Source of the DNA: a virus
Lineage: Duplodnaviria; Heunggongvirae; Uroviricota; Caudoviricetes
IMG/VR virus record: IMGVR_UViG_3300045988_024436
Coordinates: 1 to 22,928 of that record
Length of the DNA: 22,928 nt
Direction: 5' to 3' (one strand)
This document shows, piece by piece, positions 7,336 through 22,928 of this stretch. The position numbers were made by a program, and so were the translations under genes. The notes beneath the pieces are model-generated. The model searched no databases. It was given only the letters and a program-made list of their open reading frames with translations, and was not told where the DNA came from. The stretch's first letter is position 1. Each line of letters opens with the position of its first letter.

Positions 7336-7755
7336 ATGGCTTCGGAACTGAAAGCTGAATGTGGTGCCGTTGATATGCGCAGTGTGGCAAAGCTGATCAG
7401 CGATTTGGCAACGCAACTGGAAGTGCAACTGGTGCGTGCTAATGCGCTGGCGGCGGAGAATGCGGCGCTGAAACACGCAATGGCCGTAACTCTTGAGCAT
7501 GTGTCGGTCACGGATGCAGGGCAGGCTGGTGTTGCTGCAATGATTATCAACGATGCCCTATACCACAGCGAAACTCCGGTCACCGACGCTCTCCTGGCTG
7601 AAGTACGTGCGCAGGCGTTTAATGACCTTTGCTCGGTGTTCGTTAAGGACGCGACGGTTGCCGGGCTGGACGATGGCGACATCGTTACGGTGAAAGAAGC
7701 GACGGACGCCCTGCTGCATTGTGCGGAGCAGCTTCGCAAAGGAGGCAACCAGTGA
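7336..7755 (+). CDS. hypothetical protein
   Basis: 139-aa track ORF on the coding strand of the operon; weak SD; the minus-strand ORF 7269-7925 is treated as antisense. Confidence 0.4.
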   Translation: MASELKAECGAVDMRSVAKLISDLATQLEVQLVRANALAAENAALKHAMAVTLEHVSVTDAGQAGVAAMIINDALYHSETPVTDALLAEVRAQAFNDLCSVFVKDATVAGLDDGDIVTVKEATDALLHCAEQLRKGGNQ

Positions 7756-8306
7756 GCAAGATTGATTATCAAAAGCTTCGTGAAATCGCTGAAAAAACAA
7801 AAATTGCTGGTGAAGCACCTGTAATGCCTTTCGATCAGCGAATTAATGCGCTTAACGATTTTATGAAGCACTTTTCGCCAGATATCGCGCTGGCATTGTT
7901 GGATGAACGGGAAAGAAACCTGCAATACATCAAAAGCCGCGATCAGGAGAACGAGGATATTGCGCTAACGGTAGGGAAGCTGCGTGTTGAGCTGGAAGGC
8001 AAAGACAGCAAAATAGCCAATCTTACCGCCGAACGCGATGCTCTTCGTGAAGGTGAGATGGGCGACGCTAGGCATAGCAACACACGGGCCGCAGCTGATA
8101 TCTACTTCCAACTGGTCGAGGAGTGCGAAATTCCTGCTGGCGGTTCTCTGGTCGAGTACGTTGACGATATGCGCGAGAAGCTGGAAGCCGCAGAGAAGCG
8201 CATTGCAGAACTGGAAGCACGGGAAATAAAACCAGCCAAAGGTGAAGTTCTTGTCGTTGTTCTGGTTTTACTGGTTGCGGAAAAAGCGCCATCGCCGGGG
8301 AAATAG
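7752..8306 (+). CDS. coiled-coil protein, Ead/Ea22-like
   Basis: GTG at 7752 with SD AAAGGAGG 6 nt upstream, overlapping the upstream stop (GTGA); SKIDYQKLREIAEK... then heptad-rich LEAAEKRIAELEAR; hydrophobic C-terminus VLVVVLVLLVA. Confidence 0.45.
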   Translation: MSKIDYQKLREIAEKTKIAGEAPVMPFDQRINALNDFMKHFSPDIALALLDERERNLQYIKSRDQENEDIALTVGKLRVELEGKDSKIANLTAERDALREGEMGDARHSNTRAAADIYFQLVEECEIPAGGSLVEYVDDMREKLEAAEKRIAELEAREIKPAKGEVLVVVLVLLVAEKAPSPGK

Positions 8307-8314
8307 AAATCGCG

Positions 8315-8503
8315 ATGAAGGCTATTGGTGTACCGGTTAAGTGGACTAATGGCGATGCAGAAAAGCGCATGACTGGCGCTGACTGGCTGACAGCGATTGA
8401 GATGTACAAACCAACTGTGCGCATCGTGGAAGTTAATGTGCCATGCGTCGCTGGCATTTGCATCAAAGGAGACGCAGGAGAGCAAAACGATGAAAAACCG
8501 TAA
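8315..8503 (+). CDS. hypothetical small protein
   Basis: 62 aa; on the operon strand; weak SD. Confidence 0.35.
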   Translation: MKAIGVPVKWTNGDAEKRMTGADWLTAIEMYKPTVRIVEVNVPCVAGICIKGDAGEQNDEKP

Positions 8504-8678
8504 AGCAAAGATTCTGTTAGTTCGTAGAAACGCTCCTGGCGTCTGGCAGTGGGTGAGACTCAGCAACCGACGGATGGGGTTGATGAAATATTACGGGATG
8601 ATGGATTGTGGTTTTTGCAAAAAGCCCAGCGCGGCGCAAAACCGCTGGAAAAACCACTTGCGTACTAAAGGAGAGTGA
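8490..8678 (+). CDS. hypothetical small basic protein
   Basis: 62 aa from ATG at 8490 with GGAG 9 nt upstream; MKNRKAKILLVRRNAPGVWQW...; C-terminal part of track ORF 8397-8678. Confidence 0.35.
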   Translation: MKNRKAKILLVRRNAPGVWQWVRLSNRRMGLMKYYGMMDCGFCKKPSAAQNRWKNHLRTKGE

Positions 8679-8679
8679 T

Positions 8680-8889
8680 ATGGCTATCGCTGCAAGTTAC
8701 ACCATGCATCTCTATTGTGACTGCCGTCAGTGCACGGAAGGTGTATATCCAGTGCCAGACTTCGGTGAGTATATAGGTACGTCATGGGCTGGCTGTGCAA
8801 AAGAGGCGCGCAAGGATGGCTGGCGAATAAGCAAAGACAAAACGCGTGCTTTTGCGCCCGGGCATAAAGTTTTGAGGATTAACAAATGA
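8680..8889 (+). CDS. small Cys-rich protein
   Basis: 69 aa from ATG at 8680 with SD AAGGAGAG; CDCRQC cluster; contains FGEYI, shared with the 10384 gene. Confidence 0.4.
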   Translation: MAIAASYTMHLYCDCRQCTEGVYPVPDFGEYIGTSWAGCAKEARKDGWRISKDKTRAFAPGHKVLRINK

Positions 8890-9833
8890 CCACTATTACC
8901 AGAGAACAAGCTCTGAAAATTATTGAGGCAGCCGATGAGGTTATTAGTGCGCTGGCCGGAACTAACGAGGATGTTCACCCTGGTAGCGATAACATGCTAC
9001 GCCTGTGGGATGACCTGAATGACCGTTACGCGCCGCCGGAAATTGTGCGTGAACTGGCACGGATTGTGCTGGCATCGCTGGAAGCCGAGCCTGTTCTGTA
9101 TCAGTCCTGCACTCGCCCCACCTGGAATAGCGGTGTTCCGTGGACGGAATGGAAAGAACGAAGTCGTGAGTGCTACGAAGACGATTTGCGCTTTACAGAC
9201 ACGCCTGACCATGCCGGTTGGATATACAAATGTCGAAAACTATATACCACTCCGCCAGCGCCGATAGCGTTAGAGGCCATTGAAAACGCAATTGAATACA
9301 TCCGCAGTATCGCTTTTCACATCGATGAAGACGATTACCACGGCAAACATATTGCGTATTTCATGCAGCAAGCATTGGCCTGGCTGGAAGGGCATTCATG
9401 CAGCGACGACAGACTGGGTAAAGCCGAGAATCAACCAGTACGCGGCAACCAGGCTGCCGAATCCAATCGCGATAATGAGTGGACTGGCAATCCTGATATT
9501 GATAACGCCATCATCATGCTCGACCGCATAGATACGCTGGAAAATTGCGATGATGACCGTATTGAGGCTGTTAAGGCTGTTTTGCGTAGACTGGCTGGCA
9601 ACTATCCGGTAATTCCGGATGGTTGGATAAGCTGTAGTGAGCGAATGCCTGAGAACATTCCCGGAAGTTGTAAAGAGTATCTGGTGTTTGATGGGCTTAA
9701 TAATAAAGTTCATCACGATTACTGGGTTGTCCCTGATGGAGACAGTGCGCCAGTTGCGTCGTTCTGGAATCATTACGGGGCACATGTAACTCACTGGATG
9801 CCTCTACCGGAACCGCCGCAGGAGGTTAATTGA
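8886..9833 (+). CDS. DUF551-like phage protein
   Basis: 315 aa; C-terminal GWISCSERMPE...VTHWMPLPEPPQ resembles the DUF551 signature as recalled; SD GAGGA before the ATG. Confidence 0.55.
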   Translation: MTTITREQALKIIEAADEVISALAGTNEDVHPGSDNMLRLWDDLNDRYAPPEIVRELARIVLASLEAEPVLYQSCTRPTWNSGVPWTEWKERSRECYEDDLRFTDTPDHAGWIYKCRKLYTTPPAPIALEAIENAIEYIRSIAFHIDEDDYHGKHIAYFMQQALAWLEGHSCSDDRLGKAENQPVRGNQAAESNRDNEWTGNPDIDNAIIMLDRIDTLENCDDDRIEAVKAVLRRLAGNYPVIPDGWISCSERMPENIPGSCKEYLVFDGLNNKVHHDYWVVPDGDSAPVASFWNHYGAHVTHWMPLPEPPQEVN

Positions 9834-10841: not shown

Positions 10842-11296
10842 TGATGCCTGCTGAACCTAAAGCCTATAAACGCAAATCAACGCAATTTAAGCCACTAACA
10901 GCAATGCAGGAGGCTTATTGCCAGTCATACATCAAAACGCCTGAAAACCAGACTCAGGCAGCGATTAACGCAGGATTCTCCCCAAATACAGCGGCAGTTA
11001 AAGCCAGTGTCATGATGCGCGATGAACGCATTCAAAAACGGATTGCCGAGTTGATGGAGGAGCGCAACAAACGAATGCGCGTCAGTGCTGATTACGTTCT
11101 CATGCGCTTGGTGGAGATCGACCAGATGGACGTGATCGACATCCTCAACGACGATGGTAGCCTTAAGCCAATCCGAGAGTGGCCGAAAATCTGGCGCACT
11201 ACGCTTAGCGGCTTTGATCTGTCATCGACCATCATGAACATGAACGAGGATTCGATAGAGACAATCATCAAAAAATTAAATGGCCTGACAAGGTGA
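10841..11296 (+). CDS. terminase small subunit, probably C-terminally truncated by a frame change
   Basis: Track ORF starts at 10763 but its first 26 codons are the terminator and operator DNA, so ATG at 10841 or 10844 is preferred. A protein-like frame ([20 protein letters not shown]...[10 protein letters not shown]) continues from 11290 to a TGA at 11431-11433 that overlaps the GTG of the large subunit. Confidence 0.55.
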
Positions 11297-11429
11297 AGAA
11301 CCTCGAACTGATTGGTAAGCACGTCGACGTCAACGCATTCAAAGAACGCCTGGATGTTAATGTGAATGTGACAATTGCTGATCGCATAGCGGCAGCCAGG
11401 AAGAGACTGAAGAACGTCAGTGGCAATCA

Positions 11430-12908
11430 GTGACAGATACAGCGTTATCTCCTGAAGAGCAGTTAATCGAGATATTGCAGGGTTCACTCACGATCCGCTT
11501 GGCTATGCCCTCTATGGGTTCCCCGTGGGGGGGAAGGAGGGTACTGAACTGGCGACATGCCACCGGTCCACGTCAGTGGCAGGCCGATGCGTTCCGAGAG
11601 ATACGTGATCACCTGCAGAATCCAGAGACGCGATATCAGCCGCTTATGCTGGCACGTGCTTCTGGTCACGGTATTGGTAAATCCGCATTCATCTCAATGC
11701 TGATCAACTGGGGCATGTCCACTTGCGAGGATTGTAAGGTCGTGGTGACCGCCAACACCGACAACCAGCTACGAACGAAGACCTGGCCGGAAATTATCAA
11801 GTGGTCAAACCTTGCTATCACGAAAGACTGGTTTACCTGTACCGCTACCGCGATGTACAGCAATGACCCTGGGCACGACAAGCGGTGGCGAGCTGACGCA
11901 ATCCCCTGGTCTGAGCACAACACTGAGGCATTCGCCGGACTACACAACGAGCGTAAACGCATCATCGTGGTATTTGATGAAGCGTCGAACATTGCGGATC
12001 TGGTGTGGGAAGTTGCCGAGGGTGCGCTAACGGACGAAGACACTGAGATTATCTGGGTGGCTTTCGGAAACCCTACACGTAACACCGGGCGTTTCCGTGA
12101 ATGTTTCCGCAAATACAAACACCGCTGGAAAACTGCGCAGATTGACAGCAGGACGGTGGAAGGCACCAACAAACAGCAGTTGCAGAAATGGGTTGATGAC
12201 TACGGGGAAGATAGCGACTTCGTTAAAATCCGTGTGCGTGGCATATTCCCTGATGCATCTGAATTGCAGTTTATCCCTACCGGTCTTACTGACGAGGCAA
12301 TGAAACGGGTGGTAACTGCTGCGCAGGTGGCACATGCTCCGGTGATAATCGGCGTTGACCCGGCATACTCCGGCGTTGATGACGCTGTGATATACCTGCG
12401 GCAGGGGCTACACAGTAAGGTGCTGTGGACTGGCAACAAGACTACCGACGATCTGATTATGGCGAAGCGTATCGCTGACTTTGAAGACCAGTATCAGGCT
12501 GACGCGGTGTTCATCGACTTCGGTTACGGAACCGGTTTGAAGTCAATCGGTGACGGCTGGGGTCGTACATGGCAACTTGTTCCGTTCGGTGGCGCGTCTA
12601 CTGACCAGCAGATGCTCAACAAGCGTGGGGAGATGTTCAACTCATGCAAGACATGGCTGAGGCTGGGCGGCATGCTTGATGACCAGGAAACAGCGGACGA
12701 CCTGTCGGCGGCAGAGTACAAAGTTCGAGTGGACGGTAAAATCGTTATCGAACCGAAGGAAGATATCAAGGAGCGGCTTGGGCGTTCTCCTGGTAAAGGC
12801 GATGCGCTACTGCTGACGTTTGCGTTCCCGGTGTCAAAGCGCCTGCGAATTCCCGGGCAGCAGAACCAGCAAGGCAAGGCCATTACAGATTACGATCCCT
12901 ATGCTTAA
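11430..12908 (+). CDS. terminase large subunit
   Basis: 492 aa; ATPase-like N-terminal half and nuclease-like C-terminal half ([11 protein letters not shown]...DAV); GTG start overlaps the upstream stop. Confidence 0.8.
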
Positions 12909-12978: not shown

Positions 12979-13184
12979 GTTTGTGACATGTCACGGTGTT
13001 AGAAGGTTATTTTATCGAATGCGGCGTTGATTGCCTTGGCGTCCTGCTCAGCACCAACCACATCAAGTAAAGATCTTTTACTAAGCACTTCAGCCAGGCA
13101 TTGTAACTTCATTGTTGTATAAGGTTTTTCGCGCATTGTAATTCATCATCACTTTTTTCTTTGGCGTATACAGCGCGAGAAATA

Positions 13185-13427
13185 TCAAACTACATTGCCT
13201 TTTTCCATTTCAGTTTTCTGCGCTGAAATCCAGTCATGGCAAGTAACTCCTATTCCATGGTCATCGCTAAGCGTTAACCCGGCAAGTCGCTCACCTGGAA
13301 TTGCTTCACAAAGCATTTCATTTCCTGCAAAAACACCATAAAAAATTGAGTCATCACCCTGAACAATGCGTACATATTTGCACGGCCATTCATTTAGATA
13401 TTTAGCTAGCATGTCGGCTGTTTTCAT
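13185..13427 (-). CDS. hypothetical 80-aa protein in minus-strand insert between terminase and head genes
   Basis: ATG at 13425-13427 with SD AAGGTGAG; opposite strand to the flanking late genes; lies between two minus-strand terminators. Confidence 0.4.
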   Translation of the reverse strand: MKTADMLAKYLNEWPCKYVRIVQGDDSIFYGVFAGNEMLCEAIPGERLAGLTLSDDHGIGVTCHDWISAQKTEMEKGNVV

Positions 13428-13582: not shown

Positions 13583-13626
13583 AAGCCCCTGGAACTTCTG
13601 GCATCACGGTCCTTAGGCGTGATTCT

Positions 13627-13702
13627 GGCGTGGCATGCAGGATTCGAACCTGCGACCAACCGCTTAGAAGGCGGTTGCTCTGTCCAGCTGAGCTAATGCC
13701 AC
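13627..13702 (-). tRNA. tRNA-Arg (anticodon UCU)
   Basis: Reverse complement GTGGCATTAGCTCAGCTGGACAGAGCAACCGCCTTCTAAGCGGTTGGTCGCAGGTTCGAATCCTGCATGCCACGCCA folds as a cloverleaf: 7-bp acceptor stem, anticodon loop CTTCTAA, T-loop TTCGAAT, encoded CCA. Close to E. coli argU as recalled. Confidence 0.9.
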
Positions 13703-14129
13703 AACGCTGAGAGCACTTAGCCTGTTAAGGCGCCACACTTTGTCGCGGCTCCATAAATGCTCTCATCGTTGTACCCTCGTCTCTTCCGAGGCGTCACACC
13801 GAATCGCCGGGATGGTGAATCCCCGTGCGCGGAATAAAACCGCTCGACTTGCACATTCCGGCTACCTGGTTCGTTTGCCCGAGCAAGGGAGGGTGCCCCT
13901 TAAACGTATCCAGACCGCTATCGGCGCATGTGCCATACGCCGTACTGCTCAAAATAAAAGCTCACTCCACCTGTTCAATTTAACGACAAGCCAGTCAGGT
14001 TAGTAACCGGAATGAACTCTTTGGTTACCTGAAAGGTAATAATTTGTGCGTTAAATGTCAACTGCCTACGATAAATAAATCATATGTGGTTAAATTGGTA
14101 ATAATTTAATTGCGTACGGAGTCATTGAT

Positions 14130-14336
14130 ATGTGCATGGGTAGCTCACCATCAGTGCCTGCAACACCAGAAGTTCAGGCAGCACCACAGGAGCAGGATGC
14201 CGCCGTTGTTGATGCCCGCGACGAAGAAACTCGTCGCCGTCGCGCTGCTGCTGGTCGTAGTTCTACGCTGCTTACCGGTTCTCAGGGCGACACATCAACC
14301 GCTAATACCAGCGGTAAAACGCTGCTTGGTCAGTAA
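14130..14336 (+). CDS. hypothetical small protein at the start of the morphogenesis operon
   Basis: 68 aa; GGAG 8 nt before the ATG; preferred over the overlapping 14110 ORF because of the SD and because its stop sits just before the next gene. Confidence 0.4.
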   Translation: MCMGSSPSVPATPEVQAAPQEQDAAVVDARDEETRRRRAAAGRSSTLLTGSQGDTSTANTSGKTLLGQ

Positions 14337-14350
14337 CCGGAGTCATTGAA

Positions 14351-16028
14351 ATGGCGGAAACAACTAAAGAGCGATTGAACAAACAGTTCGCACAACTTGA
14401 AAGCGAGCGTCAGTCGTTCGAGCCGCACTGGCGCGAGTTGAGTGATTACATCAACCCGCGTGGTTCCCGCTTTCTGACTTCTGAGGTTAACCGTAACGAT
14501 CGACGCAATACACGCATTATTGATTCGACCGGGACTATGGCGGCGCGCACTCTCGCCAGCGGCATGATGTCAGGCATCACAGCCCCGCGCGTCCGTGGTT
14601 TCGCCTGGCTAGCCAGATCCTGAAATGATGGATTATGGCCCTGTTAAGTTGTGGCTTGAGGCGGTGCAGAACCGCATGAACGATATGTTCAATAAGTCGA
14701 ATCTCTATCAGTCGCTGCCGCAGTTATACGGAAGCCTCGGCACATACAGCACTGGTGCAATGGCAGTGCTGGAGGATGACGAGGACATCATTCGCACAAT
14801 GCCATTCCCGATAGGCAGTTACTACCTGGCTAACTCACCTCGTGGCAGTGTGGACACCTGTTTTCGCAAGTTCTCTATGACTGTTCGTCAGCTTGTTCAG
14901 GAGTTCGGGCTAAATAACGTCAGCGAATCCGTAAAAAGCATGTGGGAAAGCGGAACCTACGAGAAGTGGATTGAAGTGATGCATTCGGTTTACCCGAACA
15001 TTGACCGCGATACATCGAAGCTGGATAGCAAGAACAAGCCATTCAAATCGGTTTATTACGAGGTTGGTGGCGATAACGACAAGTTGTTGCGTGAGTCCGG
15101 ATTCGATGAGTTTCCAATTATGGCTCCGCGCTGGGAAGTTAACGGCGAAGATGTTTATGGATCATCATGCCCGGGTATGCTGGCGCTTGGACCTGTTAAG
15201 GCATTGCAGCTTCTCCAGAAGCGCAAGTCGCAGTTGATTGATAAAGCCACCAATCCGCCGATGGTTGCTCCGACTTCCCTCAAGAATCAGCGTGCCTCCC
15301 TTCTTCCTGGCGACATCACGTATATCGATCAGATTACTGGTCAGGATGGTTTCAGGCCTGCTTATCTGGTTAACCCCAGTACAGCAGATTTGGTGGCAGA
15401 CATTCAGGACACCCGTCAAATCATTAACAGCGCCTACTTTGTCGATCTGTTCATGATGTTGCAGAACATCAATACCCGCTCGATGCCTGTTGAAGCGGTG
15501 ATCGAAATGAAAGAAGAAAAACTTCTGATGTTGGGGCCGGTTCTGGAGCGTCTGAACGACGAATGTCTTAATCCTCTCATTGACCGCGCTTTCTCGATGA
15601 TGGTGCGTAAAAACATGCTGCCGCCACCGCCTGACGCGATGGAAGGTATGCCCCTGAAGGTCGAATACATTTCCGTCATGGCTCAGGCGCAGAAGTCTAT
15701 CGGCCTGTCCAGTCTGGCGTCTACGGTCAACTTCATTGGTCAACTTGCGCAAGCGAAACCAGAAGCTCTCGACAAACTCAACGTTGATCAGGCGATCGAT
15801 GCATTCGCTGATATGTCCGGAGTGTCTCCAACCGTCATTGTTCCGCAGGAACAGGTTGAGCAGGCTCGCCAGCAACGGGCACAGCAACAACAGCAGCAAC
15901 AAATGATGGCGATGGGGATGGCGGCGGCACAGGGTGCCAAGACGCTAAGCGAAGCTAAAACTTCGGATCCGAGTGTTTTGTCAGCTATGGCGAATGCAGT
16001 TAGTGGTCAGGGTGGGCAATCACAATGA
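14351..16028 (+). pseudogene. portal (head-to-tail connector) protein, apparently split by two nearby frame changes (or sequencing errors)
   Basis: ORFs 14351-14623 (90 aa) and 14625-16028 (467 aa) are in different frames. The third frame across the junction encodes SPARPWFRLA (14581-14610), which resembles the P-x3-W-x-RL stretch of T7 gp8; a C4 run lies at 14583-14586. Poly-Q near the C-terminus. Confidence 0.65.
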
Positions 16029-16321
16029 CAGATTACGAAGACGATCAACTGAAAGAAGAAAACGCCCGTAAGCAACGTGACATGGCACAGCGTGAAATTG
16101 ATGACATTTGCTTTGTCATGAGCAGTGAACAGGGGCGTCGCGTTGTCTGGTCGGTGCTGGAGAAAGGCCGTGTGTTTTCCGCTATCTCACCGATGGACGC
16201 TATGGCAATGGCATTTAATGAGGGGCAACGCAATCTGGCGCTGGAACTGTTTCAGCGCGTTATGGCGCATTGCCCTGAACAGTATTTGAAGATGGCCAAA
16301 GAGGCCAGTGAACAGGAGTGA
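16025..16321 (+). CDS. hypothetical head-assembly protein
   Basis: 98 aa; ATG overlaps the portal stop (ATGA). Confidence 0.45.
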   Translation: MTDYEDDQLKEENARKQRDMAQREIDDICFVMSSEQGRRVVWSVLEKGRVFSAISPMDAMAMAFNEGQRNLALELFQRVMAHCPEQYLKMAKEASEQE

Positions 16322-16323
16322 TC

Positions 16324-17019
16324 ATGAATTTATTTGAGCGTTTGCTGTATCGCCGTCTTTGCAATGAGCAACCAGTCGATGGTGGAGCAGCTCCGGCTGC
16401 GTCAGAACCGTCAGCGCCTGCAGGTGATAACCCTGCTCCAGTTGGTGATCCATCACAACAGGAAGGTGATAAGCCACAACCTGTTGCTGATGGCGATAAA
16501 CCTGCTGATGACAAAAAGCCTGAAAACGATAAGCATGATGAAAAAAAGGACGGCGATAAACCAGAGGGTGCGCCTGAAAAGTACGAGTTTCAGGCTGCCG
16601 AAGGCGTAGAGCTGGATACAGAAGCGTTGAAGGAATTCGAGCCGGTGGCGCGAGAACTAAACCTGACCAACGAGCAAGCGCAAAAGCTGGTTGATGCTTA
16701 TCCGAAGATTCTGGCAGGTGTTCAGCAGCGCCAGGCAGAAGCCTGGCAGAAAACAACCGAGCAGTGGGCTGCGGATGTAAAAGCCGACAAAGAAATCGGT
16801 GGCGACAAGTTGATTTCTAACCTTAGCGCCGCACAGCGTGCGCTTGACCAGTTCGGGACACCTGAACTCAAAGAATATCTGAACACCACCGGGCTGGGTA
16901 ATCACCCTGATCTGGTCAAAACGTTCGTGAAAATCGGAAAGGCGATGTCTGAAGATGGCATGGTCACCGGTGGTAATGAAGGCCAGCGTAGTGCGGCCGA
17001 AGTGCTCTATGGCAAATAA
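16324..17019 (+). CDS. scaffolding protein
   Basis: Acidic, low-complexity N-terminal half with GDKP-type repeats and a helical C-terminal half; lies between portal and capsid; SD ACAGGAG before the ATG at 16324. Confidence 0.55.
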   Translation: MNLFERLLYRRLCNEQPVDGGAAPAASEPSAPAGDNPAPVGDPSQQEGDKPQPVADGDKPADDKKPENDKHDEKKDGDKPEGAPEKYEFQAAEGVELDTEALKEFEPVARELNLTNEQAQKLVDAYPKILAGVQQRQAEAWQKTTEQWAADVKADKEIGGDKLISNLSAAQRALDQFGTPELKEYLNTTGLGNHPDLVKTFVKIGKAMSEDGMVTGGNEGQRSAAEVLYGK

Positions 17020-17033
17020 GAGAGGAAATGACA

Positions 17034-18020
17034 ATGGCTGTTAAAGGCTTAACTGCGCTAACGCTGGCTGACTGGGGTAAGCGCGTCGATCCAAACGGGA
17101 AAGTCGATAAGATTATCGAGCTTCTCGGTCAAACTAACCCGATCCTTCAGGATATGCCTTTTGTCGAAGGGAACCTCCCTACCGGACACCGAACCACCAT
17201 TCGTTCTGGTTTACCTTCAGCTACCTGGCGTTTGCTGAACTATGGCGTACAGCCAAGCAAATCAACCACAGTGCAGGTAACCGATTCCGTTGGCATGCTG
17301 GAAACCTATGCGGAAGTCGATAAGTCACTGGCTGATCTGAACGGCAATACCGCCGAATTCCGCCTTTCTGAAGACCGCGCATTTATTGAAGCGATGAATC
17401 AGCAGATGGCGCAGACGCTGTTTTATGGTGATTCCAGCGTTAATCCTCAGCAGTTTATGGGACTGTCCTCCCGCTATTCCAGCCTGTCTGCGGGTAATGC
17501 TCAGAACATCATTGATGCTGGTGGCACGGGTACAGATAACACCTCAATCTGGTTAGTGGTGTGGGGCGAAAACACCGTGCATGGCATCTTCCCGAAAGGG
17601 CAGAAGGCTGGCATCCAGATGGAAGATAAAGGCCAGGTGACACTGGAAGATGCTAATGGCGGCAAGTACGAAGGCTATCGCACCCATTACAAATGGGATA
17701 ACGGACTTGCTCTGCGTGACTGGCGTTATGTTGTTCGCATTGCAAACATCGATGTCAGCAATCTTTCAGAACCATCCTCTGCCGCAAATATTGCGAAGTT
17801 GATGGTTAAAGCACTACATCGCATTCCAAACCGTGGCATGGGCCGCCCGGTGTTCTACATGAACCGCACTGTAGGCCAGGCTCTTGATCTGCAGTCTCTG
17901 GAGAAAACATCTCTGGCTATCAGCGTAAAAGAGACAGAAGGCGAGTGGTGGACTTCATTCCGTGGTGTACCAATCCGTGAAACTGATGCGCTTCTGGAAA
18001 CAGAAGCCCGCGTGGTGTAA
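17034..18020 (+). CDS. major capsid protein
   Basis: About 328 aa; follows the scaffold gene; SD GAGAGGA 7 nt before the ATG at 17034; a hairpin follows the gene. Confidence 0.65.
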   Translation: MAVKGLTALTLADWGKRVDPNGKVDKIIELLGQTNPILQDMPFVEGNLPTGHRTTIRSGLPSATWRLLNYGVQPSKSTTVQVTDSVGMLETYAEVDKSLADLNGNTAEFRLSEDRAFIEAMNQQMAQTLFYGDSSVNPQQFMGLSSRYSSLSAGNAQNIIDAGGTGTDNTSIWLVVWGENTVHGIFPKGQKAGIQMEDKGQVTLEDANGGKYEGYRTHYKWDNGLALRDWRYVVRIANIDVSNLSEPSSAANIAKLMVKALHRIPNRGMGRPVFYMNRTVGQALDLQSLEKTSLAISVKETEGEWWTSFRGVPIRETDALLETEARVV

Positions 18021-18036
18021 CGCCTGTTATTAACCT

Positions 18037-18056
18037 GTGGGTCGTAACAGACCCAC
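18037..18056 (+). other. stem-loop after the capsid gene (possible processing site or attenuator)
   Basis: GTGGGTC-GTAACA-GACCCAC; no T-tract follows. Confidence 0.3.
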
Positions 18057-18071
18057 TAATGGAGAAAGAAG

Positions 18072-18509
18072 ATGATCACCGACAAACTGTTGATGTTCTC
18101 CGAAGCTCAGGCGGTTACGAATACCGCGGCTTCTACTGACGTAATCGATCTCGGCCCAATTGACGGAAAACGTCGTGATATCGGCGTGGGTTACCCACTT
18201 GAGTTTTGGGCGCTGGTTAACACAGCCGCCGCGGCAAGCGGTGATGCAACTGTAAACATCCAGTTGCAGACGAGTGAGAATAACAGCTCATGGACCACTA
18301 TTTATGATAGTGGCGCACTGGCAAAGACCGCCCTGACAGCAGGTAAACGAGTTGTTTCTGCAAAGGTGCCTGCCGGTGTTCAGCGATATCTGCGTGTTAA
18401 CTACTCCGTCGCAACTGGCCCACTAACGGCTGGCAAATTCACTGCGGGTATCAGTCTGGATGTTGATGCCAATACGCCGTACCCGATCCGCTCAAAAGTA
18501 ACTGGTTAA
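18072..18509 (+). CDS. hypothetical virion protein (possible capsid decoration or head-tail protein)
   Basis: 145 aa; SD GGAGAAAG; Thr/Ala/Gly-rich. Confidence 0.4.
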   Translation: MITDKLLMFSEAQAVTNTAASTDVIDLGPIDGKRRDIGVGYPLEFWALVNTAAAASGDATVNIQLQTSENNSSWTTIYDSGALAKTALTAGKRVVSAKVPAGVQRYLRVNYSVATGPLTAGKFTAGISLDVDANTPYPIRSKVTG

Positions 18510-18519
18510 GGTGATATCG

Positions 18520-18855
18520 ATGTCAGGTGAGAAACCAAGATACCGCGTTCTGCGCCTCTCTCATATCCATAACACTCTGTGGCCGGAGGGGGCAGAAATC
18601 GAATACGAAGGTGAGCCTGGTAGCGCACTGGAACCTGTTAACGATGCAGCCAGACAGGCAAAAGCAAAAGTTGCAGGAAAGGTGTCAATGGCAGCAACCA
18701 GCACCAAAATCATCAACGATGTGTCAGATGATGGTGAACTGGATAAGCTCCGTGAAGAGTACGAATTGCTCTTTAACGAGAAGCCACACCATAACGCTAA
18801 AGCCGAAACGCTACGCGAGAAGATCGCAGATAAGCGTAAAGAACTGGGCGTGTAA
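18520..18855 (+). CDS. hypothetical virion-associated protein
   Basis: ATG at 18520 with SD AAGGTG 6 nt upstream; followed by a strong terminator. Confidence 0.4.
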   Translation: MSGEKPRYRVLRLSHIHNTLWPEGAEIEYEGEPGSALEPVNDAARQAKAKVAGKVSMAATSTKIINDVSDDGELDKLREEYELLFNEKPHHNAKAETLREKIADKRKELGV

Positions 18856-18871
18856 GCCTCGCGAATCAGAC

Positions 18872-18893
18872 AAGGGGCTTCGGCCCCTTTATT
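18872..18893 (+). terminator. rho-independent terminator
   Basis: AAGGGGC-TTCG-GCCCCTT followed by TATT. Confidence 0.6.
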
Positions 18894-18911
18894 GCAGGAG
18901 TATAGAAACTT

Positions 18912-19517
18912 ATGGCCTCTGTAGTAGAGATCTGCAATCGTGCGCTGTCCAATATTGGCAACAGCCGCAGCATTAACAGCCTGACGGAAGCCAGCAAGGA
19001 AGCGGGGGAATGTTCGCTGCACTTTGAGGCCTGCCGTGATGCTGTGCTTTCTGATTTTGACTGGAACTTTGCTACCAAACGCGTGGCGCTTGCAGATACG
19101 AGCAATCCACCGCCTGACTGGGAATATGCGTACCAGTACCCGTCAGATTGTCTGCGCATTACTGAAATTATGCTTCCTGGTGTACGCAATCCAACAGCAG
19201 CAATGCGCGTTCAGTACGAAGTTGGTGCAGACACCAACGGAACAGGAAAGTTGATCTACACAGACCAGCCGCAGGCATGGCTCAAGTATGTCTCTCGCGT
19301 TTCAGATGTGAACATGTTTGATGCCATTTTTATGGAGGCGTTGGCCTGGCGTCTTGCGGCAGCTATTAACATGGCGCTGACTGGGAATGCAGACCTCGGT
19401 ACGTTTGCCCTCAATATGTACAATCGCGTGATTCTTAGTGCTGGCTCGCATAGCCAGAATGAATCACAGGAACCACTGCCACCGGTTGACGAGTTTACCA
19501 TTGCGAGGTTGTCCTGA
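18912..19517 (+). CDS. tail tubular protein A (T7 gp11-like)
   Basis: 201 aa; N-terminus ICNRALSNIGNSRSINSLTEASKEAG follows the pattern of the recalled T7 gp11 N-terminus; size and position before a roughly 800-aa protein fit. Confidence 0.55.
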   Translation: MASVVEICNRALSNIGNSRSINSLTEASKEAGECSLHFEACRDAVLSDFDWNFATKRVALADTSNPPPDWEYAYQYPSDCLRITEIMLPGVRNPTAAMRVQYEVGADTNGTGKLIYTDQPQAWLKYVSRVSDVNMFDAIFMEALAWRLAAAINMALTGNADLGTFALNMYNRVILSAGSHSQNESQEPLPPVDEFTIARLS

Positions 19518-21988
19518 TGGCTATCAGTTGGATCCAGCCCAGCTTTGCCGGTGGTGAGATTGGACCGTCGTTGTACGGTCGTATTGACATGGCGAAGTAC
19601 CAGGTGGCATTGCGCAAGTGCGATAACTTTATCGTGCGGCAGTATGGCGGAGTTGAGAATCGACCTGGTACGCGTTTTGTCGGTGCCGCCAAATACCCAA
19701 ATCGGAAATGCCGCCTGATCCCGTTCCAGTTCTCGACGGTTCAGACTTATGCTCTGGAGTTTGGACACCAGTACATGCGCGTTATCAAAGATGGTGCGTT
19801 GGTGCTGAACAGCAGCAATGTTATTTATGAAATTGCCACGCCATATACTGAAGCCGATCTGTTCCGAATTAAATTCACGCAAAGCGCAGACGTGCTTACG
19901 CTGGTTCATCCGGCATACCCGCCGAAAGAGTTGCGCCGCTATGCGCATGACAACTGGCAACTGGTTGATGTGGTAACGAAGAACGGGCCATTTGAAGATA
20001 TCAATATTGACGAGTCAGTGACGGTTTATGCCAGCGCCAGCACCGGGACAATTACGCTAACGGCAAGCGCCTCTATTTTTGGCGCGGAGCAGGTAGGAAA
20101 ATTGTTCTATCTGGAACAGCCTGCAGTGGATTCTGTGCCGGTATGGGAAACCAGTAAGAGTACGTCGATTGGCGATATTCGCCGTGCAGACAGTAACTAC
20201 TATCGCGCCGTTACAGCAGGCAAAACAGGTACTTTGCGCCCTTCGCATACAGAAGGCACATCATGGGATGGCTGGGGCGGATCCGGTGATGATGATACTG
20301 GCATTGAGTGGGAATATCTGCACAGTGGTTTTGGCATTGCCCGTATCACTGCTGCAAATGGAACTACTGCAACTGCCGAGGTGATTTCCTATATCCCTTC
20401 GCAGGTCGTGGGCGAGGATAATGCCAGCTATAAATGGGCTAAATATGCCTGGAACAGTGTTAATGGTTATCCTGGCACTGTTGTTTATTATCAACAACGT
20501 CTTTACTTCGCCGCATCGACTGCGTTTCCTCAGACTATCTGGGCCAGCCGTACCGGGGATTATAAGGATTTTGGCAAAAGCAATCCTACGCAGGATGACG
20601 ACAGAATTATCTACACCTATGCCGGACGTCAGGTTAATGAGATCCGCCACCTGATTGATGTTGGTTCTCTGGTGGCGCTGACTTCCGGAGGTGAGTACGT
20701 CATCACCGGCGACCAGAACAAAGTGTTAACCCCATCATCATTTGCATTCAGCTCTCAGGGATCAAATGGCTCAAGCAACGTCCCGCCAATTGCCGTGGCG
20801 AATATTGCTCTGTTCGTCCAGGAGAAAGGCAGCGTTGTCCGTGATCTGGCCTACTCATTCGATGTTGACGGCTATCAGGGGAACGACCTGACCATCCTTG
20901 CCAATCATCTTTTTCAGAAGCACAGCATTGTTGACTGGTGCTTCTCTATTGTCCCTTACTCCAGCGCCTTCTGCATTCGTGATGACGGTAAATTACTGGT
21001 GATGACCTATTTGCGTGATCAACAGGTTTTTGCATGGGCACCACAGTCCAGTACCGGAAAATATGAAAGCACATGCAGTATCAGCGAAGGCAATGAAGAT
21101 GCGGTGTATTTCGTCATTAACCGAACCGTTAACGGGCAAACAGTGAGATACATCGAGCGACTGTCCAGCCGTTTATTTACCAGCGATGAAGATGCTTTCT
21201 TTGTTGATTCTGGCCTTAGCTATGATGGAAGAAATACGTCTGACAGAACGATGACCATCACTGGTGGTTCTGGTGAATGGGATTACCGTGCGGAATATAC
21301 AATCAGTGTTTCTGGTGGTGCGTACTTCACCAGTAGTGATGTCGGCGCGCAACTACAGTTCCCTTATACCGGAACTGATCCTGATACTGGCGATGAAGTG
21401 TCAAAAGAATTACGTTGCGACATTATTTCTGTAACCAGCAATACCGCTGTAGTGGTTCGTGCTAACAGGAACGTCCCGCCATCCCTCAGGAATGTGGCCA
21501 CCACGAACTGGCAGATGGCGCGCCGGACATTTGGAGGCCTGTCTCATCTTGAAGGCCAGACCGTAAACATTCTCTCTGATGCGAACGTGGAACCACAGAA
21601 AGTGGTTTCCGGAGGTGCCGTCACGCTGGAATCTCCGGGGGCTGTAGTGCACATCGGCCTGCCAATAACTGCTGAATTCGAAACACTGGATATCAACATT
21701 AACGGACAGGAAACGCTGCTGGACAAAAAACAGGTGATCCCCTCCGTTACTCTGGTTGTGAATGCCAGTCGCGGCATCTGGGCGACTACGCCCGGCGGTA
21801 AATGGTACGAATATCCACAGCGTGAATTCGAGTTCTACGATGATCCTGTTGATGATGCTACCGGAAAAGTAGAAGTGAAACTGGACAGTAACTGGGGCAA
21901 AAACGGACGTGTAAAAATCCGTCAGCTTGATCCGTTGCCGCTGTCTGTTCTTGCCGTTATTCCTCGCCTTACTGTTGGGGGATTCTGA
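19517..21988 (+). CDS. tail tubular protein B (T7 gp12-like)
   Basis: 823 aa; start overlaps the upstream stop; size and gene order match podovirus tubular protein B; sequence match to recalled T7 gp12 is weak. Confidence 0.55.
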   Translation: MAISWIQPSFAGGEIGPSLYGRIDMAKYQVALRKCDNFIVRQYGGVENRPGTRFVGAAKYPNRKCRLIPFQFSTVQTYALEFGHQYMRVIKDGALVLNSSNVIYEIATPYTEADLFRIKFTQSADVLTLVHPAYPPKELRRYAHDNWQLVDVVTKNGPFEDINIDESVTVYASASTGTITLTASASIFGAEQVGKLFYLEQPAVDSVPVWETSKSTSIGDIRRADSNYYRAVTAGKTGTLRPSHTEGTSWDGWGGSGDDDTGIEWEYLHSGFGIARITAANGTTATAEVISYIPSQVVGEDNASYKWAKYAWNSVNGYPGTVVYYQQRLYFAASTAFPQTIWASRTGDYKDFGKSNPTQDDDRIIYTYAGRQVNEIRHLIDVGSLVALTSGGEYVITGDQNKVLTPSSFAFSSQGSNGSSNVPPIAVANIALFVQEKGSVVRDLAYSFDVDGYQGNDLTILANHLFQKHSIVDWCFSIVPYSSAFCIRDDGKLLVMTYLRDQQVFAWAPQSSTGKYESTCSISEGNEDAVYFVINRTVNGQTVRYIERLSSRLFTSDEDAFFVDSGLSYDGRNTSDRTMTITGGSGEWDYRAEYTISVSGGAYFTSSDVGAQLQFPYTGTDPDTGDEVSKELRCDIISVTSNTAVVVRANRNVPPSLRNVATTNWQMARRTFGGLSHLEGQTVNILSDANVEPQKVVSGGAVTLESPGAVVHIGLPITAEFETLDININGQETLLDKKQVIPSVTLVVNASRGIWATTPGGKWYEYPQREFEFYDDPVDDATGKVEVKLDSNWGKNGRVKIRQLDPLPLSVLAVIPRLTVGGF

Positions 21989-22452
21989 TGATCGATGTTC
22001 AAATTATTCCCGCAACCGAAGAGCATCTTCAGATGATTTTGCCGGATGTTCGTCAGGCTGATATTGACGAACTGTATGCGGTATCACTGATGACTACCGA
22101 AGATGCGCTGCGTGTTGGTCTGCGTACTGCGACTATGGCCTGGTCAGGATTTGCGAACGGAGAACTGGTAACCATGTTTGGCGTATCTCCGGCGTCAATG
22201 ATCGGTGGCAATGGTACGCCCTGGCTGGTCGGAACCAGCCGTATCGAAAAATATCAGAAGACATTTCTTCGCCACTGCCGCCCTGTATTGCAGCAGATGC
22301 TGGCAGTTTATCCGCGCCTGGAAAACTATGTCGACGAGCGAAACCATGTTGCCAAAGCATGGCTGCACTGGCTTGGATTCAGGCTTGAAGAAGCCGCGCC
22401 TTATGGTGCTCTTGGTCTTAATTTCCACAGATTTCACATGGAGAGAAAATAA
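21988..22452 (+). CDS. putative internal virion protein (gp13 position)
   Basis: 154 aa; start overlaps the upstream stop (ATGA); assigned by position only. Confidence 0.4.
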   Translation: MIDVQIIPATEEHLQMILPDVRQADIDELYAVSLMTTEDALRVGLRTATMAWSGFANGELVTMFGVSPASMIGGNGTPWLVGTSRIEKYQKTFLRHCRPVLQQMLAVYPRLENYVDERNHVAKAWLHWLGFRLEEAAPYGALGLNFHRFHMERK

Positions 22453-22928
22453 TGTGCGATCCGGTTATTGCTGGTGGCGCAATGCTCGCCATGAGTGGCA
22501 TTCAGGCATACACCCAGTACCAACAGGGAAAGTATGCCTCGAAGGTTGCAGAAGCGAACGCAGATATAGCCACAGCTCAGGCAAATGATGCAATAAACAG
22601 AGGTAACGCTGAAGCTGAGCAACGGCGCAGAGAGACCCGACAGCGGCTTGGTACACAGGCGGCGACAATGGGGGCTACCGGCGCTGATTTATCTACAGGT
22701 AACGCGCTGGATATATTTGGCGACACTGCCCAGTTTGGCGCTCTTGATTCTCTGACGACGGTGAATAACGCGCAACGCGAGGCTTACGGTTATCAGGTTC
22801 AGGCTGCCAACTATAAAGCAGAAGCCAGTTCAGCCCGTAAACAGGGGAATGTGGGAGCAGCAACAACATTGCTCACTGCGCCTCTGAAGGCATACGGTGC
22901 GTACCAGATGTTTGGTGGGACGTGGAGT
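22452..22928 (+). CDS. putative internal virion or injection protein, N-terminal fragment (runs off window)
   Basis: ATG at 22452 overlapping the upstream TAA; the frame stays open for 159 codons to the window end (MCDPVIAGGAMLAMSGIQAYTQYQQGKYASKVAEANADIATAQ...); absent from the track because there is no in-window stop. Confidence 0.4.
   Translation, partial: MCDPVIAGGAMLAMSGIQAYTQYQQGKYASKVAEANADIATAQANDAINRGNAEAEQRRRETRQRLGTQAATMGATGADLSTGNALDIFGDTAQFGALDSLTTVNNAQREAYGYQVQAANYKAEASSARKQGNVGAATTLLTAPLKAYGAYQMFGGTWS

Follow-up and report, generated by a model that had tools for sequence, protein, structure and literature searches.

Is the portal gene of this phage truly broken, or does the break exist only in the sequence as deposited? 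The window (the whole stretch of 22 928 nucleotides that was analysed) contains a portal gene which, as written, is divided between ORFs of 90 and 467 aa (Table 1). A sequence-only reading had described these ORFs as lying in different frames and as parts of one gene with two single-base losses, the peptide SPARPWFRLA being encoded in the third frame between them. The coordinates and frames of both ORFs are as it described, and three-frame translation places the peptide at 14581–14610 (mod 3 = 1). Residues 1–77 of the 90-aa ORF are true portal sequence and its last 13 residues (APRVRGFAWLARS) are out of frame. Read from 5′ to 3′, the frame drops by one at either break, as expected of two single-base losses.

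Domain assignments were made with the Pfam profile PF12236 (Head-tail_con, T7 gp8-type portal), for which the curated cut-off is 27 bits. Both ORFs score above this value: the 90-aa ORF covers profile positions 2–81 (86 bits) and the 467-aa ORF covers positions 89–488 (498 bits). An intact homologue covers positions 2–488 in a single stretch (624 bits). The domain does not form one continuous polypeptide in the window as written, where it is split at profile position 81/89, but it is continuous in all relatives and also in the window once both bases are restored. Since one PF12236 domain runs across both ORFs, these are pieces of one gene and not two genes; here, and in the continuity of the homologues, the earlier reading holds. 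The portal protein of PDB entry 8ck0 (chain A) matches the portal with E = 5.7e-179, and the alignment with this solved structure shows conservation of the motif TSPARPWF(K/R)LA. The intact portal peptide around the break is ...SGMMSGITSPARPWFRLATPDPEMMDYG... According to the gene tables of the relatives and of the contig itself, the portal sits in the head-morphogenesis module beside the terminase, protease/scaffold and major capsid genes.

The portals of two Uetakevirus phages, phiV10 (YP_512261.1) and vB_EcoP_ZX5 (QTH80048.1), were used for comparison. Over 2 kb the nucleotide identity of the window is 98.8% to phiV10 and 99.9% to vB_EcoP_ZX5, and both phages share its gene order (terS, terL, tRNA-Arg, a 68-aa ORF, portal, a Bbp19-like protein, protease and major capsid protein). 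The tRNA-Arg gene of the window (anticodon TCT) lies on the minus strand at 13626–13702, between terL and the portal module; a tRNA-Arg is annotated at the matching place in related prophages. In the relatives the portal/collar CDS is continuous (1680 nt, 559 aa), whereas the window has two bases fewer and encodes 90 + 467 aa. The portal gene itself is well known; two missing bases apart, its DNA is 99.9% identical to that of the deposited complete phage vB_EcoP_ZX5.

The missing bases were located by alignment. The query (window positions 14100–16100) comprises 2001 bases, and its aligned span in each of the close relatives comprises 2003 bases. The first missing base had been assigned to a run of four C's at 14583–14586; the alignment shows instead the loss of one A from an AA pair, and this A is present in all eight aligned relatives. 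Adding a C to the C run would restore the frame, but would replace the conserved TSPARPWF by TAPARPWF. The second base had been expected near 14611–14612, and a three-way alignment places a missing C precisely between A14611 and G14612, where its loss creates a TAG at 14610–14612 in the downstream frame. The two losses are 31 bp apart and both are outside mutation-prone runs, the A belonging to an AA pair and the C standing alone. With both bases restored the portal is 1680 nt (559 aa) long, as in the phiV10-like phages, and not about 557 aa as had been estimated. CCTGG and GATC motifs, a context for nanopore errors, occur beside the second deletion; this candidate was dropped as the contig is a SPAdes assembly.

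A functional split, either as a genuine two-gene portal or through programmed ribosomal frameshifting, is extremely improbable. The two adjacent ORFs agree with it, and nothing further does. The sequence-only reading had allowed for the 90-aa product proving to be a genuine separate gene among homologous portals, but every homologue is one continuous ORF. Moreover, a single Pfam domain lies over both pieces, the conserved motif falls inside the garbled stretch and two successive −1 shifts would be needed. No slippery heptamer of the form X XXY YYZ was seen when positions 14575–14615 were read directly.

Both losses were then sought in other sequences. Among phage records, 27 span 80% or more of the 2001-base query, and each of them is longer by two bases. 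Neither portal loss occurs in any of 475 complete E. coli genomes that contain the segment, the best identity to window positions 14556–14640 being 85/87. The doubly deleted sequence and each singly deleted sequence gave no exact match in IMG/VR, in which the intact 48-mer (the positive control) was found in at least 120 contigs. In the JGI metagenomes the first deletion gave no exact match, either alone or together with the second, and the doubly deleted sequence gave no match in the GTDB representatives, a weak test as these comprise one genome per species. An exact-product look-up of the 90-aa ORF returned no record; this result is uninformative, since the source contig itself lists a 90-aa gene at that place. 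The uniqueness of a lesion does not by itself tell an error from a real private mutation.

Nine relatives were aligned to the window: three metagenome contigs, two phages and three finished E. coli prophages plus a further one. An indel was called private where the window disagrees with all aligned relatives. One region, 7473–9792, is a typical mosaic 'moron' segment: it holds variable accessory genes (Ead/Ea22, DUF551 and small ORFs) and can be aligned to hardly any of the nine relatives. Within it, 7612–9784 gave no alignment among the nine and is outside the private-indel count.

Some 25 private one-base indels were found, in six patches that span 168, 6, 0, 285, 78 and 31 bp (Table 1). The same type of lesion as in the portal had been stated for recT and, as a possibility, for the small terminase; private one-base indels are indeed present in both, and the pattern reaches more genes. 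The recT call on the contig is 181 aa long (340 aa in relatives), and its patch also contains the private substitutions A>G (1678) and G>T (1744) within 169 bp. This patch is absent from all 76 complete genomes that carry this recT allele (best identity 97.0%). The paired T insertions in the small hypothetical gene are missing in six of six relatives. In TerL, residues 15–42 are scrambled and the frame is then regained, giving 492 aa compared with 491 (net +3). The patch at 11269–11554 is private among 486 genomes, with a best identity of 95.1%. The truncated minus-strand hypothetical gene encodes 80 aa compared with 140 aa, and its patch, compared with 66 genomes, is separated from the best match by exactly six gap columns (221 versus 215 nt, 97.3%). 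No private indel was found in the 8.3 kb from 14612 to 22928.

Table 1 Portal features and private one-base indels in the window
Feature	Position	Strand	Remark
Portal (head-to-tail connector) gene, phiV10/epsilon15-like phage	14351–16028	+	Interrupted as written
Portal N-terminal fragment ORF, 90 aa	14351–14623	+	Start coordinate mod 3 = 2
Portal C-terminal fragment ORF, 467 aa	14625–16028	+	Start coordinate mod 3 = 0, true portal frame
Stretch between the two portal losses, 31 nt	14581–14611	+	Conserved motif in third frame
First missing base, A of AA pair	14580–14581	+	Relatives CACAAGCCCC, window CACAGCCCC
Second missing base, C	14611–14612	+	Relatives GCTACGCC, window GCTAGCC
recT, five private single-T insertions	1676–1844	−	
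Two private T insertions, 6 bp apart	3539, 3545		N-terminus of 99-aa small hypothetical gene
One private A insertion	7308		Start of EaE-like gene
terS, A lost	11269		In A-run; terS split into 150 + 46 aa
terS C-terminal end and terS/terL junction, three bases lost	11408–11420		
terL, one G lost	11470		
terL, four C/G insertions	11524–11554		
Hypothetical gene, six private insertions (five T, one G)	13113–13191	−	
Portal, two losses	14580, 14611	+	

The clustering of these indels is extreme. A neighbour within 35 bp was found for 15 of the 18 core indels, for which 1.0 was expected, and none of 5000 simulations matched this. The inserted base is mostly uniform within a patch (T in three patches, G in one), and the patches contain five of the 31 private substitutions. 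Each patch extends over at most 285 bp, approximately one read or read pair.

The origin of the contig bears on these patterns. Over window positions 1430–22908 (21.5 kb), the region compared, the window is identical to the ENA contig ERZ504722 NODE_606_length_22928_cov_2.671813, and the two are equal in length: the window is this metagenome contig in full. No other record carries its 492-aa TerL product. We take the last field of the name to be the mean k-mer coverage, as in SPAdes naming, i.e. about 2.7×. Under a Poisson model about 20% of the covered positions are at depth 1, that is, they rest on the k-mers of a single read. The contig begins and ends within phage DNA and host flank is absent. 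A literature search for ERZ504722 found no paper.

The portal break is most likely a sequencing or assembly artefact, produced by uncorrected read error in a metagenome contig of very low coverage, and we infer poor-quality reads as the cause. The two missing bases would be base-calling or assembly errors. Where a stretch is bridged by a single poor read alone, every error in that read would enter the consensus; one such read would yield both portal omissions, and other single reads would have contributed the extra T or G runs in recT, terL and elsewhere. The contig depth is low, the lesion is private and the errors occur in read-length patches with clean sequence elsewhere. The window thus resembles the known outcome of read errors in low-coverage SPAdes assemblies, in its coverage of 2.67, in patches no longer than a read, in the substitutions that co-locate with them and in the clean remainder. 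Two points fit less well. Indel-rich errors biased towards the same base are not the usual Illumina profile, and TerL remains in frame (net +3) despite five indels, for which the chance is 1 in 3.

Clustering of this kind could also reflect a real, localized mutagenic process, for example patches of error-prone synthesis, that struck about eight genes at once. The extreme clustering, the same-base bias and the co-location of five private substitutions with the patches are all features that such a process might leave. Equal features are, however, given by single low-quality reads at depth 1, and nothing similar is present in any relative. No mutagenic process is known to us by which single T's would be inserted outside repeats across a stretch of about 170 bp, and we consider this explanation very unlikely.

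Selection was examined through the private substitutions, with every segment checked to translate without internal stops. Outside the patches, 19 private substitutions are synonymous and five non-synonymous, compared with 499 and 135 for the shared polymorphisms (Fisher p = 1.0). The five private substitutions in 14612–22928 are all synonymous. As the private ratio equals the shared ratio, the lineage has been under normal purifying selection; an excess of private non-synonymous changes, the mark of relaxed selection, was not found among these substitutions.

The appearance of real variation in the window is illustrated by a second locus. At window positions 18856–18911, approximately 10 nt stand in place of the gp10 'capsid staple' gene, which is 324 nt long in relatives (e.g. 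18493–18816 in relative L003). Of the complete E. coli genomes, 306 cover the gp10-less junction (18865–18955) and many have it at 100% identity; an identity of 99% or more was reached in at least 238 records. Judging from this distribution, it is a common natural variant of phiV10-like prophages and not an error. Being widely shared, it shows how real variation in the window looks.

If the two deletions were real, the element would be a decaying (cryptic) prophage or a defective phage in which portal, terS, recT and further genes have become pseudogenes and for which virions would require a helper. The deposited sequence is, after all, frameshifted, and an essential morphogenesis gene is interrupted here as in the frameshifted structural genes of cryptic prophages; in finished genomes, PGAP also flags a frameshifted gene now and then in related prophages. 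Long-standing loss of terS, portal and recT would be expected to bring relaxed constraint and substitutions far in excess of indels, neither of which is seen: about 25 frame-breaking indels stand against only five private non-synonymous substitutions, and the unchanged ratio is unlike neutral decay. The lesions also differ from those of cryptic prophages in being unique, clustered, far too many per substitution and located in a contig of very low coverage (k-mer coverage 2.67). The indels fall in read-length patches with a same-base bias and none is common to any of hundreds of relatives. As the contig carries no host flank, its status as a prophage is also unproven.

Broken portals in other assemblies bear on the same reading. 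At least ten further contigs have a gene call for precisely the 467-aa product, and the lesions of the window are in none of the ten that were inspected. Three of these ten begin one base before the ATG and two have scaffold N-gaps. Just upstream of the internal ATG, one portal (L006) has a nonsense codon (GAA to TAA) and another (L010) has a 4-bp deletion. Three Logan contigs (L008 at 3074, L009 at 1186 and L012 at 1037) share the same 2-bp portal loss (CTCTCGCC to CTCGCC). This CTCTC to CTC loss is thus reproducible in three samples, and the SNP background of one sample differs. In L008 and L009 the downstream protease gene is also split (94 + 124 aa). The possibility of a hot spot for mutation immediately before 14625 was considered and rejected, as the look-up selects any lesion that forces the gene caller to start at ATG 14625. 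The 2-bp, 4-bp and nonsense lesions look like real or recurrent inactivations. Independent portal-inactivating lesions within the phage family mean that a broken portal is not implausible in itself, which keeps the possibility of real deletions modestly alive; for the window we regard it as unlikely. The reading of an element unable to make virions alone, which was conditional on real breaks, is not supported, given the coverage of 2.67, the private losses, the clustered private indels across the contig and the unrelaxed selection.

The DNA of the window almost certainly encodes an ordinary, intact 559-aa portal of the T7/epsilon15 type, belonging to a phiV10-like (Uetakevirus) temperate phage. 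Were the breaks true, the gene would still be a pseudogene of the kind that is ordinary in cryptic prophages. Where a metagenome contig has low coverage, a frameshifted essential gene calls for caution, and needs read support before it is taken to indicate a defective phage, a satellite or programmed frameshifting.
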